A stretch of DNA of 64,000 nucleotides, from positions 160,001 to 224,000 of the forward strand of contig CBFIBM010000001.1 in the NCBI GenBank assembly GCA_965660855.1, read 5' to 3'. The notes under the pieces are model-generated. The model made no database searches, had not been told where the DNA came from, and saw only the letters and a list, made by a program, of their open reading frames with translations. Shown here piece after piece: positions 2 to 20,820 of the stretch. The number at the start of each line of letters is the position of its first letter. The first letter of the stretch is position 1. The translations under genes were made by a program, and so were the position numbers. Source of the stretch: an uncultured bacterium (GTDB taxonomy: Bacteria > Fidelibacterota > Marinisomatia > Marinisomatales > UBA1611).

Positions 2-2953
2 AATAATAATTTTATTCCAATAACTAAATGGCTGTTACTAAATAGAATTTTATGGATAAGTATCGGATTTGTTTTTATAATAATAGGATTATGGAAATTT
101 GATTTTAAGCACCCAAATCCTGGGAAAGTGAAAAAAGAGAAAATCAATAAAAGTGTCCAAAAAGAACAAGCCAAATTAAAAACAATCTCCATTGCTTTTA
201 GTCCAGTATTTGACGGGAAAACTTTATGGATTCAGTTTATAACTCAAATCCGCATTGAGATTAAACGTGCTTTTCGTGATCCCTATTTTATAGCTATTGC
301 AGGTACTGCAGTAGGATTTTTAATCTTGAATGGTCAATCTATTGGACGTTGGAATGGCGTGAATACACTTCCTTTAACTAATGTAGTTGCAGGTTCATTA
401 AGTGCAGCATTTTCTTTATTTATGATTATTTTAATTACATTTTATGCAGGACAAATTATTTGGAGGGAACGTGAAATAAAGGCAAACCAAATTATGGATT
501 CTCTCCCTATACCGAACTGGATTCCAATGTTATCCAAACTAGTTGCTTTAATATTAATTCCTGGAATAATGCTATTTTTACTGATGCTTATCGGAATTGG
601 AATACAAACATGGAAAGGTTTTTATGATTATGAATTACATCTCTATATAAAAAAGTTATTTCTTCTCGATTGGACAAACTATGCTTTATTGTGCGTTTTA
701 GCATTTGCAATTCAGGTAATTGTAAATCATAAGTATTTAGGACATTTTGTGATGATACTTTATTTTTTATTTGGAATGTTTTCTGGCCAAATGGGACTTG
801 ATCATACTTTATATGATTATGGTTCTGGATCTGGAGCTCCTTATTCGGATATGAATGGATTCGAGCCTTATGTTTGGAAACTTTTATGGTACAAAGCATA
901 CTGGTTCTCTTTTGCAATATTACTAATTATAATAAGTAATCTATTTTGGAGTAGGGGCCTAACTGAAAGTTATAATACCCGTTGGAATCATAGTAAAAAA
1001 CGAGTTAATGGTTTGTTAAAAAATGGATTAATATTTTTTAGTTTTTTATTTTTAAGTATTGGAAGTTTTATTTTTTACAATACTAATATTTTAAATCAAT
1101 ATCATCAACCAAAATATTGGGATAATTTTTCTGCTGAATATGAAAAAAAGTACAAAAAATTTAATAATGTGTCTCAACCAAAAATAACAGGAGTAAGTGG
1201 AGAGGTTAACTTATTTCCCAAGGAGTCTAGATTAGAATTTTCTGGAAAATATCAGTTGAAAAATAAAACAGGAGATATTATTGATACCGTCCATTCTAAT
1301 TTTAATAGAAAGTTTCCATATGCAGTTTATTCCTGGTCAAGGAAAAATGAATTAGTAATTACTGATAGTTCCTACGGGTGGAACATGTTTGTTTTTGATC
1401 CCCCTATATTGCCAGGAGAAGAATTTTCTCTTGAATTCTCTGGATTTCAAAAACGTACTGGCTTTTCTAATAGTGGCGTCGACAGAACAGTTATTGAAAA
1501 TGGAACTATGATTTGGAGTAATCAATTATTTCCTTCGTTTGGATATAATCCTGATCGTGAATTAAGAAGTAAGCGAGTGAGAAAAAAATATGGTCTTTCA
1601 GAAAATCAGGATCCAATGTTAAAATTTGATGACATTAATGGTAATAAGGATGGTATACTGGGTAATGATGCGGACTGGGTAAATTTTGAGATGATTATTA
1701 GTACTGATTTAGATCAAATTGCTATGACCCCCGGCTATATTCAAAGAGAATGGGTCGAAAATGATAGACGTTATTTCCATTATAAAATGGATCAAAAAAT
1801 TCATAACCTTTTCGCATTTGTTTCTGCGAGGTATGAAATACTTCAAGAAACATGGAATGGTATCAGTTTAGAAGTGTATTACCATTATAAACATGATTAT
1901 AATATTGATAAAATGATGGAAGGTATGAAAAAATCATTAGAATACTATTCTGAGCTATATGGTCCATATCCTTACAAGCAATGTCGAATTCTGGAAATAC
2001 CTAGATATGCAAGTTATGCGGCCTCGTTCCCCAATACAATTCCATTTTCTGAATCAGTAGGTTTTGTTATGGACGTTGATCCTGAGGATCCAGAAGACTT
2101 AGATATGCCATTTTGGGTAACTGCACATGAAATGGGACATCAGTGGTGGCCTCATCAAGTTTCAGGAGGAAATGTGCAAGGTTCTGCTTTTTTAAGTGAA
2201 GGCTTATCTGAGTACTCTGCTGTTGCACTCTTAGCAAAAGAAAAAGGTGAAAAACAACTTAGAAAGTTTCTCAAATATGAACTGGATCAGTATTTAGAGG
2301 GACGGGCTTTTGAACAAAAGTATGAACCTTCAATTATCCAAGCGGAGGGACAGTCTTATATACATTATAACAAAGCAGGTTTAACTATGTATACATTGTC
2401 AGATTTTATTGGTAAAGATATTTTTAATAAAGCGCTGGGTAATTTTATTGAAAAATATAGATATAAATCAGATCCTTATCCGAATATTGGACAATTTATA
2501 AATAGTATTAGACGTGAGTCACCTGAGGATCTTCAGTATTTGATTACGGATACATTTGAAAAAATCACACTTTATGAAAATAAAGCGATAAGTGCTTCTG
2601 CTATTTTGAATAGTGACAGTACATATACCGTAGATGTTGAAGTGGAAGCAAAAAAAGTATATTCTGATAGTTTAGGAATTCAAACTAATGCAGGACTTAA
2701 TGATTGGCTAGAAATTGGTATTCTAGGAGAATTCTTAATAAATGGCAAAATAGAAGAACTCCCTATATACTTAGAAAAAGTTTTTATTACTGATTCTATC
2801 ACAGCATTTCAGGTAAATGTAAAAGAAAAGCCTGTTAAAGCAGGAATTGACCCAATGAATAAATTTGTGGATCGAGATTCAGATGATAACCTAATAAGGG
2901 TTAGTATTAATAAAACTGATTTTAATGAAAAAGAGGAAATTTTCGAAAATTAA
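2..2953 (+). CDS. ABC-2-type permease / M1 aminopeptidase fusion protein, 5'-truncated by the window edge
   Basis: Frame is open from position 2 (NNNFIPITKWLLLNRILWISIG...) into the 128..2953 ORF. Multi-TM N-terminal half; C-terminal HEMGH...E zinc motif (AHEMGHQWW...LSEGLSEY). Confidence 0.85.
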   Translation, partial: NNNFIPITKWLLLNRILWISIGFVFIIIGLWKFDFKHPNPGKVKKEKINKSVQKEQAKLKTISIAFSPVFDGKTLWIQFITQIRIEIKRAFRDPYFIAIAGTAVGFLILNGQSIGRWNGVNTLPLTNVVAGSLSAAFSLFMIILITFYAGQIIWREREIKANQIMDSLPIPNWIPMLSKLVALILIPGIMLFLLMLIGIGIQTWKGFYDYELHLYIKKLFLLDWTNYALLCVLAFAIQVIVNHKYLGHFVMILYFLFGMFSGQMGLDHTLYDYGSGSGAPYSDMNGFEPYVWKLLWYKAYWFSFAILLIIISNLFWSRGLTESYNTRWNHSKKRVNGLLKNGLIFFSFLFLSIGSFIFYNTNILNQYHQPKYWDNFSAEYEKKYKKFNNVSQPKITGVSGEVNLFPKESRLEFSGKYQLKNKTGDIIDTVHSNFNRKFPYAVYSWSRKNELVITDSSYGWNMFVFDPPILPGEEFSLEFSGFQKRTGFSNSGVDRTVIENGTMIWSNQLFPSFGYNPDRELRSKRVRKKYGLSENQDPMLKFDDINGNKDGILGNDADWVNFEMIISTDLDQIAMTPGYIQREWVENDRRYFHYKMDQKIHNLFAFVSARYEILQETWNGISLEVYYHYKHDYNIDKMMEGMKKSLEYYSELYGPYPYKQCRILEIPRYASYAASFPNTIPFSESVGFVMDVDPEDPEDLDMPFWVTAHEMGHQWWPHQVSGGNVQGSAFLSEGLSEYSAVALLAKEKGEKQLRKFLKYELDQYLEGRAFEQKYEPSIIQAEGQSYIHYNKAGLTMYTLSDFIGKDIFNKALGNFIEKYRYKSDPYPNIGQFINSIRRESPEDLQYLITDTFEKITLYENKAISASAILNSDSTYTVDVEVEAKKVYSDSLGIQTNAGLNDWLEIGILGEFLINGKIEELPIYLEKVFITDSITAFQVNVKEKPVKAGIDPMNKFVDRDSDDNLIRVSINKTDFNEKEEIFEN

Positions 2954-18465: not shown

Positions 18466-18984
18466 TTGAAAAACATACTTTTAATTTTTTTCATATTTTT
18501 ATCACTGATAAATGCAGAATCGACATTCGATAAATTTAAGCATGAGGAAATTATTAAAGTAATTTTAACTGATTATTTTAAGAATGTGGATGAAAAGAAT
18601 ATTGAAGGTATACTAGATCATTTAACGTCTGAGCTTATCATGAATTTTGGTTCAGATGGAGTTACTCGTATTAAATCGAAAACAGAATTTTACCCTATTT
18701 TTGAATCCTGGAGCAAATCTAGTAAGGGTCAATTTAGTTTTACAAGGATTGATTCTATTAACATTCAAGAAACTCATATTGTAAAAAATTATACTGCTGT
18801 AGCAGATGTTACATATACTAGAATGGATAAAAATGGAAATCCTATCCGAACAGAAAGGTCTTTATATCACTTTGTGCGTGGTACAGGCTATTACGGTAAG
18901 CCATTGAAATTCATTTGGGAAGTGATGATAAAATGGCTAAGGCCTTGGAAGATTTATATGATTTCCAATATAGCATTAGATTGA
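18466..18984 (+). CDS. Exported NTF2/SnoaL-like fold protein, copy A
   Basis: Signal peptide; DYFKNVDEKN...ADVTYTR...SLYHFV...WKIYM; clear paralog of 19644..20114. Fold assignment is by pattern only. Confidence 0.75.
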   Translation: MKNILLIFFIFLSLINAESTFDKFKHEEIIKVILTDYFKNVDEKNIEGILDHLTSELIMNFGSDGVTRIKSKTEFYPIFESWSKSSKGQFSFTRIDSINIQETHIVKNYTAVADVTYTRMDKNGNPIRTERSLYHFVRGTGYYGKPLKFIWEVMIKWLRPWKIYMISNIALD

Positions 18985-18991
18985 AAACATT

Positions 18992-19567
18992 TTAAAAATC
19001 TATTTTAAGAGCCCTATCTTCATTATTAATGTTATCTTTTTTAATATATGAAAAAGATTTATGCTTGATTTGTTCCTTATCAAAATATTCTGTTAATTTT
19101 CTTAAATATAAGTCCTCCATTCCTTCTTCGTATCCAGATTCTTTGTGAATTATTTTACCTTGTTTATCTATTAATAAAAAAGTTGGGTAACCTATAACTT
19201 TAAACTGTTTTGCAATTTTTGAAGAAGGGTCAACAGCAACATCAAACTTATATTTTCTCTTTTTTATATATGGCCTGACTTGATTAATGATATTAGGTTT
19301 ATTAACATTTACAGCAAGAACTGTTAATCCTGCATCTTTAAATTCTTTATTTAGCTGATTTAAATAGCCTAACTGGCGTTCACAATATGTTCACCATGTA
19401 GTCCAAAAATTAATAATCATCGGACCATCTGAATGAAAATCAGAAAGCTTTGCGTACTCTCCATCTACCATTCGAATTCTGGAGTTTCCAATCTTTTTTC
19501 CTTGAAGGATTATTGGTGAGAGGAGGTAGGATAGAAGTAGTATGGGTATAAATAACTTATTTTTCAT
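18992..19567 (-). CDS. Predicted selenoprotein: TlpA/ResA-like thioredoxin-fold oxidoreductase with a U-T-Y-C motif, 191 aa, copy A
   Basis: Manual translation: MKNKLFIPILLLSYLLSPIILQGKKIGNSRIRMVDGEYAKLSDFHSDGPMIINFWTTW-TGA-TYCERQLGYLNQLNKEFKDAGLTVLAVNVN...FDVAVDPSSKIAKQFKVIGYPTFLLIDKQGKIIHKESGY...KIDF-TAA. Single in-frame TGA at 19391-19393 (codon 59). Confidence 0.9.
19361..19393 (-). promoter_or_regulatory. UGA plus candidate bacterial SECIS element, copy A
   Basis: mRNA UGA-ACAUAUUG-UGAA-C-GCC-AGUUA-GGC-UA-UUUA. The apical loop starts 16 nt after the UGA and has GU at loop positions 2-3. Confidence 0.7.
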
Positions 19568-19643
19568 GTACCTAATTTTATGATAATCAAATGTAAATAT
19601 TAAATAAAATTTTCCAAATTTTTTTCTTAAATTGGATTAAAAA

Positions 19644-20114
19644 TTGAACCTTATGAAAACTCATATTATATTATTTTTAACTTTTTGCATTAATCATAAT
19701 TTTATTTTTGGAATTGATAAACCGAAGGATGATAAAAAAATTATCAGTTCATCCCTTATAGATTATTTTTCTAAAGTTGACGAAAAAAATCTTGAAAGCA
19801 TGTTAAATTATATTGAATTACCTTTTATTTTAAACTTTGAATCAAAAGAACCACTCCATCTAAAAAATGAAGACGAATTCTTTGAGGTATTTGAACTTTG
19901 GAGCAAGTCTGAGAAAGCAAATTTCTTAAAAACTGTATTAGATTCTGTATCTTACACTGAAATTCATAAGGATTTTATGTGGGTTGGGGATGTTACCTAC
20001 TCTAGAGTAAATATAAAAAGTGGGATTAAAGAGACAAATAGATCACTTTATTATTTTGTGAAGAAGAAACATGACTGGAAGATTTATATGGTAAGCAGTG
20101 TTGATTTTGATTAA
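19644..20114 (+). CDS. Exported NTF2/SnoaL-like fold protein, copy B (likely start ATG 19653)
   Basis: Signal peptide; DYFSKVDEKN...GDVTYSR...SLYYFV...WKIYM; paralog of 18466..18984. Confidence 0.75.
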   Translation: MNLMKTHIILFLTFCINHNFIFGIDKPKDDKKIISSSLIDYFSKVDEKNLESMLNYIELPFILNFESKEPLHLKNEDEFFEVFELWSKSEKANFLKTVLDSVSYTEIHKDFMWVGDVTYSRVNIKSGIKETNRSLYYFVKKKHDWKIYMVSSVDFD

Positions 20115-20133
20115 AAAATAATTAGTAGTGTTT

Positions 20134-20700
20134 TTAAAAGTCTATATTAATTGCTTCTTTTTTGTTATCATTCTTTCTCTCATATTCAAAAGCTTCATAT
20201 TCGATATTCTCATTGGTAAAGTAAGATTTGAGAGCTTCTAAATATTCTTCTTCCGTACCATCTCCATAACCTGCACTTTTATGTATTACTTCGCCATTTT
20301 TGTCTATAAGATAAAATGTAGGGTAACCTTTTACATCAAATTGTTTGGCTAATTTAGAAGTTGGATCCAAGGATACATCAAATTTATACTTTCTTTTATT
20401 TATGTATGGCCTTACTTGATTTACTATTTGAGGTTTATTTGAATTGATGGTAAGAACTTTTAAACCAGTCTTACTAAATTTTGAATTAATTTGATCTAAA
20501 TAGCCTAACTGGCGTTCACAATTTGGTCACCACGTTGTCCAGAAATTAATGATCATTGGCCCATCTTGGTTAAAGTCAGACAACTTTGCATATTCTCCGT
20601 TTAACATTTTGATCCTTGCAGTGGGAATTTTATTGTCCTTAAGTGCAAGGCCAACAAAAAAAGACAGGAATACTAATGAAGAAAGAATATGTTTTTTCAT
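20134..20700 (-). CDS. Predicted selenoprotein: TlpA/ResA-like thioredoxin-fold oxidoreductase with a U-P-N-C motif, 188 aa, copy B
   Basis: Manual translation: MKKHILSSLVFLSFFVGLALKDNKIPTARIKMLNGEYAKLSDFNQDGPMIINFWTTW-TGA-PNCERQLGYLDQINSKFSKTGLKVLTINSN...LDPTSKLAKQFDVKGYPTFYLIDKNG...NIDF-TAA. TGA at 20527-20529 (codon 58). The ORF track shows only the last 78 aa. Confidence 0.9.
20497..20529 (-). promoter_or_regulatory. UGA plus candidate bacterial SECIS element, copy B
   Basis: mRNA UGA-CCAAAUUG-UGAA-C-GCC-AGUUA-GGC-UA-UUUA. Positions 20497-20522 are identical to 19361-19386. Confidence 0.7.
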
Positions 20701-20820
20701 AATTAATGTTAAAATTATAATTTTAATCTTTAAAAATTACTATAAAATCATTTTAAATATAACTTTATTTCTTGTAAATAAATAATGGAAGAGAATACTT
20801 TTTAATCATTAATATTATAG

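Follow-up and report, generated by a model that had tools for sequence, protein, structure and literature searches.

A short hairpin downstream of the UGA codons of two TlpA-like selenoprotein genes in a SAR406 bacterium as a probable SECIS element

In a 64,000-nt window of DNA from an uncultured bacterium of SAR406 (Marinimicrobia), two tandem open reading frames (ORFs) on the reverse strand each contain one in-frame TGA, and each TGA is followed by the same short hairpin, which we analyse here as a candidate selenocysteine insertion sequence (SECIS) element. The source genome comprises 2.09 Mb in 81 contigs, has a G+C content of 31% and is 84% complete. Read with TGA as selenocysteine (Sec, U), paralogue A (positions 18992-19567 of the window, reverse strand) encodes a protein of 191 aa with the active site W-U-T-Y-C (U59), and paralogue B (20134-20700, reverse strand) encodes a protein of 188 aa from the same family with the active site W-U-P-N-C (U58). 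Both share the motif F-W-T-T-W-U-x-x-C, and both are predicted to be exported ResA/TlpA-like thiol:disulfide oxidoreductases, the export being based on a hydrophobic N-terminus judged by eye.

In searches against Pfam, paralogue A matched AhpC-TSA with 85.8 bits (residues 34-141) and Redoxin with 74.8 bits, while paralogue B matched AhpC-TSA with 80.5 bits (residues 23-140). The matches to AhpC-TSA, Redoxin and Thioredoxin_8 all exceed the Pfam cut-offs and span U59 in paralogue A and U58 in paralogue B, and in both proteins U occupies the position of the first Cys of the CxxC in the thioredoxin-fold domain. No NCBIfam model reached its cut-off for the paralogues; the nearest models were ResA, TlpA and DsbE, the top match of paralogue A being ResA (NF002854) with 95.7 bits against a cut-off of 170, and WAxxUGC_long scored 38.9 bits against a cut-off of 300.

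The TGA codons read as Sec lie at 19391-19393 (paralogue A) and 20527-20529 (paralogue B), both on the reverse strand, and align with the first Cys of W-C-x-x-C in 17 Cys homologues. In 54 genomes of the family, we found 15 TGA-containing homologues as well as many Cys homologues; in 401 genomes sampled across the phylum, no Sec form was found beyond one SAR406 family. With metagenome contigs included, the Sec set held at least 55 genes among the matches listed, 51 of them unique and free of N. The TGA is kept at the active-site position in all 51.

The sequence-only reading of this DNA had pointed to a stretch of 26 nt that is identical in the two paralogues despite their divergence elsewhere. 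An exact string search of the window confirmed two copies of this stretch, ATTGTGAACGCCAGTTAGGCTATTTA, on the reverse strand at 19361-19386 and 20497-20522, each beginning 5 nt past the in-frame TGA of its gene. No third match was found in the window at up to three mismatches, the expected number being 0 from 100 shuffles. Within the two copies lie the hairpins themselves, at 19367-19377 in paralogue A and at 20503-20513 in paralogue B (both reverse strand). As had been stated, the geometry read off the sequence is UGA, 13 nt, GCC, AGUUA, GGC, so that the first base of the loop lies 16 nt past the UGA; moreover, a G or GU had been claimed near the start of the apical loop, and AGUUA has G and then U at loop positions 2 and 3.

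For the pair analysis, the Sec homologues were reduced to 45 distinct rows of 72 nt, covering -12 to +57 around the UGA. RNAalifold without a supplied structure yielded exactly the 3-bp hairpin on these 45 rows, and did so also on the 14 rows of a smaller alignment that contained 14 of the 15 genomic Sec sequences (L023, which contains N, was excluded). A 5' helix over the UGA that appeared in the 14-row consensus was rejected, as it was gone at 45 rows. A covariance model, R1, built from 43 of the 45 rows (two rows of the CAC/GTC type, L026 and L027, in which the hairpin is in another register, were excluded), matched the hairpin of paralogue B with 48.9 bits (E 1e-8).

The three stem pairs either covary or are invariant in the 45 distinct Sec homologues. 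In the 51 unique Sec sequences, codons +5 and +8 combine as AGG/GCC in 26, CGC/GGC, which is the type of the window, in 12, ATG/GCA in 10, TTG/GCA in one and CAC/GTC in two, and the first, second, third and fourth of these types all retain the pairs between alignment columns 29-39 and 30-38. Pair 29-39 is G-C in 33 of the 45 rows, U-A in 10 and unpaired in two; pair 30-38 is G-C in 33, C-G in 10 and unpaired in two; and pair 31-37 is C-G in all 45. The stem thus occurs as GGC/GCC and UGC/GCA besides GCC/GGC with the 5-nt loop kept, and the type of the window differs from the majority type by an exact swap of the middle pair from G-C to C-G. Overall, 91% of the cells are paired compared with 19-49% if the partners are slid by one to three columns, and the covariation score was reached by none of 500 shuffles. 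Because the stem changes are partly synonymous (Arg AGG to CGC, Ala GCC to GCA), coupling at the level of the protein cannot explain the pairing.

The position and the loop of the hairpin are conserved as well. The loop begins 16 nt past the UGA in 43 of the 45 distinct rows, the two CAC/GTC rows being in another register. Three contiguous pairs are present in 10 of the 45 rows, as they are in the two copies of the window, and four (AGGC/GCCU) in 22, and the loop also occurs as AGUUG and AGGCU. The Gln codon that gives loop positions 1 and 2 is CAG in 51 of 51 Sec sequences and, of 138 codons that could be compared, is the sole one to show no synonymous variation (median 0.50). Elsewhere in the Sec genes, two Gln codons are mixed (CAA in 35 and CAG in 16 sequences, and CAG in 29 and CAA in 12, respectively).

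By contrast, in the 17 Cys homologues (16 distinct) only 33% of the cells are paired, which is no better than the slid controls. These homologues showed no covariation and no predicted hairpin, and have A-rich Lys codons at the site; thus, the Cys-encoding homologues conserve neither the codons nor the pairing. In total, we conclude that selection acts on the hairpin as RNA, and does so in Sec genes only.

The genome encodes all trans-acting parts for Sec decoding. The gene selA (494 bits; cut-off 268) is adjacent to selB (303 bits; cut-off 242), and the encoded SelB has a C-terminal SelB-wing_3 domain (63.5 bits) and E. coli SelB (5lzb) as its best relative in the PDB. A tRNA-Sec was detected with 63.3 bits (cut-off 47) and was also found by ARAGORN, and selD (TIGR00476; 395 bits) is itself a Sec gene.

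Altogether, the covariation, the fixed loop G, the contrast to the Cys homologues and the presence of the machinery bear out the earlier proposal of a SECIS element just 3' of the Sec UGA, and we consider it highly likely from these comparisons that the hairpin past each UGA is a SECIS element that directs its reading as Sec. In E. coli fdhF and fdnG, the SECIS element is a hairpin past the UGA in which a loop G-U contacts SelB and of which the upper stem-loop suffices, provided that its distance is fixed. The element of E. coli measures some 40 nt, and it has a longer stem as well as a bulged U. The SelB of the genome analysed here resembles E. coli SelB in having the same domain order and the C-terminal winged-helix domain. 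Unlike in the E. coli elements, 11 nt are demonstrably constrained as structure here and no conserved bulge is evident.

By analogy with E. coli, we infer how the element would work. In both TlpA-like proteins, Sec encoded by UGA would replace the first active-site cysteine, and the SECIS element would consist of three G:C pairs (GCC/GGC) closing the AGUUA loop, with the first loop base 16 nt past the UGA. The C-terminal winged-helix domain of SelB, together with GTP and Sec-tRNA(Sec), would bind the loop, i.e. the G and then the U, and the top of the stem. A hairpin starting 13 nt past the UGA would be placed just outside the mRNA channel of the ribosome once the UGA is in the A site, and the tethered Sec-tRNA would outcompete release factor 2 at the UGA. 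Binding by SelB, sufficiency of the 11-nt hairpin and the geometry of the tethering are all transferred from the E. coli system in this scheme.

The consensus model for bacterial SECIS (bSECIS) elements (Zhang and Gladyshev 2005, as summarised in the legend of Fig. 2 in PMC13188914) has a loop of 3-9 nt and an upper stem of 4-16 bp. According to the same summary, a G is present in the first two loop positions, mostly as G[G/U], the spacing is 16-37 nt and the minimum free energy (MFE) is -7.5 kcal/mol or lower (PMC13188914). The element analysed here is similar to this model in several respects: it lies in the coding region, its hairpin starts 13 nt past a UGA that aligns with Cys in homologues, its 5-nt loop has G at position 2 followed by U, its spacing of 16 nt equals the lower limit of the range, and compensatory changes, amounting to about three events, keep the structure in Sec genes.

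Several observations weigh against the hairpin being a SECIS element. First, it departs from the bSECIS model in having three contiguous pairs in the window copies instead of 4-16 bp, with weak extensions across mismatches, and in its energy, the core hairpin (3-bp GCC/GGC stem and AGUUA loop) of the window sequences having -3.9 kcal/mol as opposed to -7.5 kcal/mol or lower; a simple hairpin at or below the latter value is found in none of the 45 rows of the family. Similarly, folds of the single sequences were no better than those of shuffled sequences (z-scores of -0.32/+0.49 for 61 nt and -0.32/+0.51 for 41 nt), and the RNA folding that had been proposed as a check gives no support in terms of energy. 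A scan of positions 18900-20800 with Rfam gave no match on the hairpin, and the three snoRNA matches in this region (E 0.47-1.5) were at chance level and below the gathering score. Second, the roughly three compensatory events are each inherited by many rows, and the ATG/GCA subclade (L016:3109-3180 and other rows of alignment A4) has a competing hairpin, CUGCG-AGA-UGCAG, which starts 10 nt past the UGA, overlaps the in-register AUGCA-GGC-UGCAU and scores better in six rows. Finally, the Cys homologues form a separate clade in which the protein also differs at the site (K-K-Q-M compared with E-R-Q-L-A), i.e. they do not make close Sec/Cys pairs with the Sec genes, and in a peroxiredoxin (Prx) family of the same lineage four distinct close Cys orthologues retain a hairpin at +21, so that retention or loss of a hairpin in Cys forms is not a clean test.

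The departures in stem length and energy could also mean that the functional SECIS element is larger or different and perhaps takes in a lower stem, a base that bulges out or sequence farther downstream. The 3-bp hairpin would then be just the tip of the element, or would not be bound by SelB at all. The lower stem drawn in the sequence-only reading, UGAA/UUUA, did not hold up: two of its four pairs are formed in only 16 of 45 rows (columns 24-45) and 13 of 45 rows (columns 26-43), i.e. the stem is not conserved, and the full drawing has -3.0 kcal/mol, which is worse than the -3.9 kcal/mol of the 3-bp stem by itself. A different lower stem in columns 25-43, 26-42 and 28-40 speaks for a larger element, as it is paired in 45, 38 and 32 of the 45 rows, respectively, with one compensation from A-U to G-C. 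This lower stem has -1.7 kcal/mol on the window sequences, however, and in the type of the window 28-40 is C.U; accordingly, the lower pairs bring no added stability there. A register with a bulged C yields six pairs in some rows of the window's own type (TTC variants).

Two divergent TlpA-like Sec genes also point to a larger structure. These genes, L026:1591-1662 and L027:1825-1896 (from genomes G027 and G025), are the ones without the 3-bp hairpin, and carry instead CCAGAU(G)-G(G)UC(U)-(U)AUCUGG, a hairpin of 6-7 bp and -7.2 kcal/mol that lies 4-5 nt farther downstream, with the loop 20-21 nt past the UGA. Judging from the alignment, the element has shifted register in these two members of the family. 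RNAalifold on the 45 rows retains the 3-bp stem only, and longer folds of the window sequences give no common alternative: the MFE of the 63 nt past the UGA is -4.4 kcal/mol in paralogue A, while the longer fold of paralogue B with -10.4 kcal/mol is a different structure that disrupts the core hairpin and is not present in paralogue A. An MFE fold in which GGUG, which includes the UGA, pairs with CGCC was rejected because it is impossible in the relatives of the AGG type. In total, a larger or different element is unlikely, and among the structures examined the 11-nt hairpin alone is firmly supported by the sequence comparisons.

A lack of any RNA function is less probable still. In this case, the identity of the two copies would come from the conserved protein sequence C-E-R-Q-L-G-Y-L and shared ancestry, or from a short gene-conversion tract. 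The residues are indeed conserved, the folds are no better than those of shuffles, as described above, and the flanks of the 26-nt run use preferred codons (TGT 76%, TAT 81% and TTA 49%). In the alignment of the two genes, 377 of 576 nucleotide columns are identical and the 26-nt run is the sole identical run of at least 10 nt; shuffling of codon columns gave a run of at least 26 nt in 620 of 100,000 cases, or in 2,410 of 100,000 if restricted to codons 30-150 (the conserved core). Against a lack of RNA function, CGC, CAG and GGC had been described as unusually GC-ending for this AT-rich DNA, and these codons are rare in the long ORFs of the genome, making up 3.2% of Arg, 21.1% of Gln and 8.9% of Gly codons, respectively.

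Close metagenomic relatives that carry both paralogues narrow down the constrained part of the run. In the 12 CGC/GGC-type sequences, GAACGCCAGTTAGGCT alone is invariant (12/12) while the flanks vary (TGC, CTC, TTC and TTG); in paralogue A the constrained stretch, GAACGCCAGUUAGGCU, is at 19366-19381 on the reverse strand. Given this variation in the flanks, constraint covers only some 16 of the 26 nt. Thus, the claim of exact identity stands, while the claim of a 26-nt unit does not, the remainder being preferred codons that vary in close relatives. The rare codons are invariant in both paralogues across these 12 sequences although the A and B proteins are only 57% identical; together with the compensatory changes, which include synonymous ones, and the CAG codon kept in every Sec sequence, they make it very improbable that the element has no function in the RNA.

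In a tree of 51 rows from which SECIS columns 37-47 had been removed, the CGC/GGC-type sequences of A and those of B formed two well-supported clades within a polytomy. A and B as a single clade were not rejected (AU test, p = 0.143); the tree can therefore not tell whether the CGC/GGC type arose once or twice, a point that leaves room for identity by ancestry. A lineage-specific duplication after the stem swap suffices to explain the identity of A and B. Gene conversion is not required as its source, though it may have taken place; it would account for the identity of A and B, but not for the covariation across the family.

Standard gene calling ends at the TGAs and TGA is a normal stop codon in this genome, in which other ORFs end at TGA, but that they are true stops or inactivating mutations in genes that are truncated or each split in two has a negligible chance of being correct, given a TGA exactly at the Cys position in 51 of 51 unique sequences taken from numerous genomes and metagenomes, a coding sequence that stays conserved for about 130 codons past the TGA, a Pfam domain that spans the site and the full Sec machinery. 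Gene callers truncate the two genes at residue 58/59, which leaves a pair of exported redox enzymes wrongly annotated in a phylum that is abundant in the ocean and uncultured.

With the hairpin taken as the SECIS element, it is conceivable, though we hold this tentatively and with some doubt, that Sec insertion in SAR406 operates on a minimal element, i.e. an 11-nt hairpin with three G:C pairs and an N-G-[G/U]-N-N loop that is locked 16 nt past the UGA and is smaller and weaker than the consensus model allows. If so, predictors that start from the SECIS element would under-call selenoproteins in this phylum, and recognition by SelB would reduce to the loop and three pairs. Likewise, if the minimal hairpin is sufficient, selenoprotein finders based on SECIS elements would have to apply looser thresholds than the present ones (a stem of at least 4 bp and an energy of -7.5 kcal/mol or lower) to marine lineages rich in A+T. 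Regardless, an element too small and weak for folding-energy filters is still identifiable by comparison, and the family provides a natural experiment in which stems are swapped exactly within coding sequence while the loop G stays fixed at a synonymous position.

Prx-like/TlpA-like selenoproteins with UxxC (cd02966, PF00578) and SECIS predictions with a loop G have been catalogued from Sargasso Sea and Global Ocean Sampling (GOS) metagenomes since 2005-2008 (PMC1088965, PMC2398784, PMC13188914). The two paralogues resemble these selenoproteins in their thioredoxin fold, UxxC, matches to PF00578 and Redoxin, marine origin and predicted SECIS element with a loop G; the F-W-T-T-W-U-x-x-C subfamily is set beside the Sargasso Sea and GOS lists by description and not by sequence, and has no assigned place in them. 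A literature search found no paper specifically on SECIS elements of SAR406/Marinimicrobia; it did not cover the supplements of the GOS paper, which may list these genes. Neither the protein class nor the mechanism is new, and our results leave the known mechanism unchanged; what is mildly new is the small and weak element compared with the consensus model.

We also searched the genome for in-frame TGAs flanked upstream and downstream by coding potential, and compared the candidates with Pfam and NCBIfam. The genome contains at least 12 selenoprotein genes, i.e. 10 beyond the TlpA-like pair, most of which encode exported thioredoxin-fold proteins. The 10 genes, all outside the window, encode three redoxins with dockerin/thrombospondin-like tails (L232, L234 and L235 at C1:124118, 261992 and 269226), an Omp28-related selenoprotein (L233, C1:258254; NF045500, 563 bits), a Prx-like protein (L236, C1:355800), a Trx_2/DsbH-like protein (L238, C5:43173), a UshA-like C-G-U protein (L239, C5:20714; 211 bits, which is below the cut-off of 275), two PrxQ/BCP peroxiredoxins (L240, C6:59769, and L243, C17:11572) and SelD (L244, C19:7457); all 10 have an in-frame TGA and are supported by their families.

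The best hairpins of the 12 UGAs have the loop 15-21 nt past the UGA (16 nt in seven of the 12) and G at loop position 1 or 2. Their energies as simple hairpins range from -1.6 to -7.8 kcal/mol, and the MFE of the 63 nt past the UGA is weaker than -7.5 kcal/mol in seven of the 12 genes. As in the TlpA-like pair, six of the other 10 UGAs are followed by a short G+C-rich stem with a 5-nt N-G-[G/U]-N-N loop, at 16 nt in five genes (L232, L234, L235, L238 and L244) and at 18 nt in L233. The stem and loop sequences of the other Sec genes differ from those of the TlpA-like pair, with loops such as AGGCU, UGGAU and CGGGU; in the Prx genes, moreover, the stem has 6 bp and the offset is +21, and in the UshA-like gene there are 7 bp at +18.

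The sequence-only reading had proposed the element as a probe for further selenoproteins. A descriptor of the geometry, D1 (three Watson-Crick pairs, at least two of them G:C, with a 5-nt N-G-[G/U] loop at an offset of 15-18), matched 73 of 85,830 TGAs in the genome, including eight of the 12 selenoprotein UGAs; because D1 was composed after all 12 hairpins had been viewed, the sensitivity of 8/12 is circular and only the background of 73 in 85,830 is independent. Among the D1 matches, nine had ORF context, eight of which were the known genes, and no new selenoprotein was revealed. The covariance model R1, searched across the 2.09 Mb, picked up the two paralogues alone (E 1e-8 and 2.7e-8); the match after these had E 0.8, and the Omp28-type UGA had E 7. 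D1 matches other Sec genes and R1 does not; thus, the geometry generalises while the sequence does not, and the proposed use as a probe is upheld for the loose geometry, with the circularity noted, and not for the family-specific model.

In 11 distinct Sec sequences of the Trx_2 family, the stem of the hairpin at +16 (loop UGGAU) consists of 3-6 contiguous pairs and occurs in several compensatory variants, while five distinct Cys orthologues have 0-2 pairs at the same site. The SelD genes (L246-L275, where L246 is the copy of the genome itself, G000:C19:7406-8440) have two alternative hairpins: a proximal one at +16, GGUC-[CGGGU]-GACY, and a distal one at +33, CCCAG-GUU-CUGGG, which covaries to CCCAA/UUGGG. 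In 29 sequences, 18 have the distal hairpin only, five, including the genome of the window, have the proximal one only (with an N-G-[G/U] loop), five have both and one (L273) has neither. Of the six without the distal hairpin, five carry the proximal hairpin with the loop CGGGU, and the sixth is L273. From the sequences, this pattern looks like the replacement of a SECIS element within one gene family. Together with the register shift in the two TlpA homologues, the complementary occurrence of the +16 and +33 hairpins in SelD suggests that the element turns over inside gene families.

The +21 hairpins of L240 and L243 differ by one compensatory pair (GGAUUC/GAAUUC and GGACUC/GAGUUC). Among the PrxQ/BCP sequences L276-L305, the Cys forms L281, L288, L290 and L293 retain a 6-bp CUC-CGGGAU-GAG hairpin and the rare codons; the hairpin in these Cys forms may be a fossil SECIS element after recent conversion of Sec to Cys, or it may reflect constraint on the peptide L-R-D-E-F.

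Each of the two TlpA-like genes adjoins a divergently oriented small gene on the forward strand. The gene next to paralogue A (18466-18984) encodes a small protein that has a signal peptide and is weakly similar to SnoaL-like proteins (Pfam SnoaL_3 with E 0.06, which is below the cut-off), and the gene next to paralogue B (19644-20114) encodes its paralogue. Because the two small SnoaL-like proteins are 36% identical to each other, the duplicated unit is a cassette of two genes. The TlpA-like Sec gene is also present as a tandem pair in several relatives, i.e. in L016 (G038) and at the metagenome loci L153-L158, L163-L167, L169 and L170.

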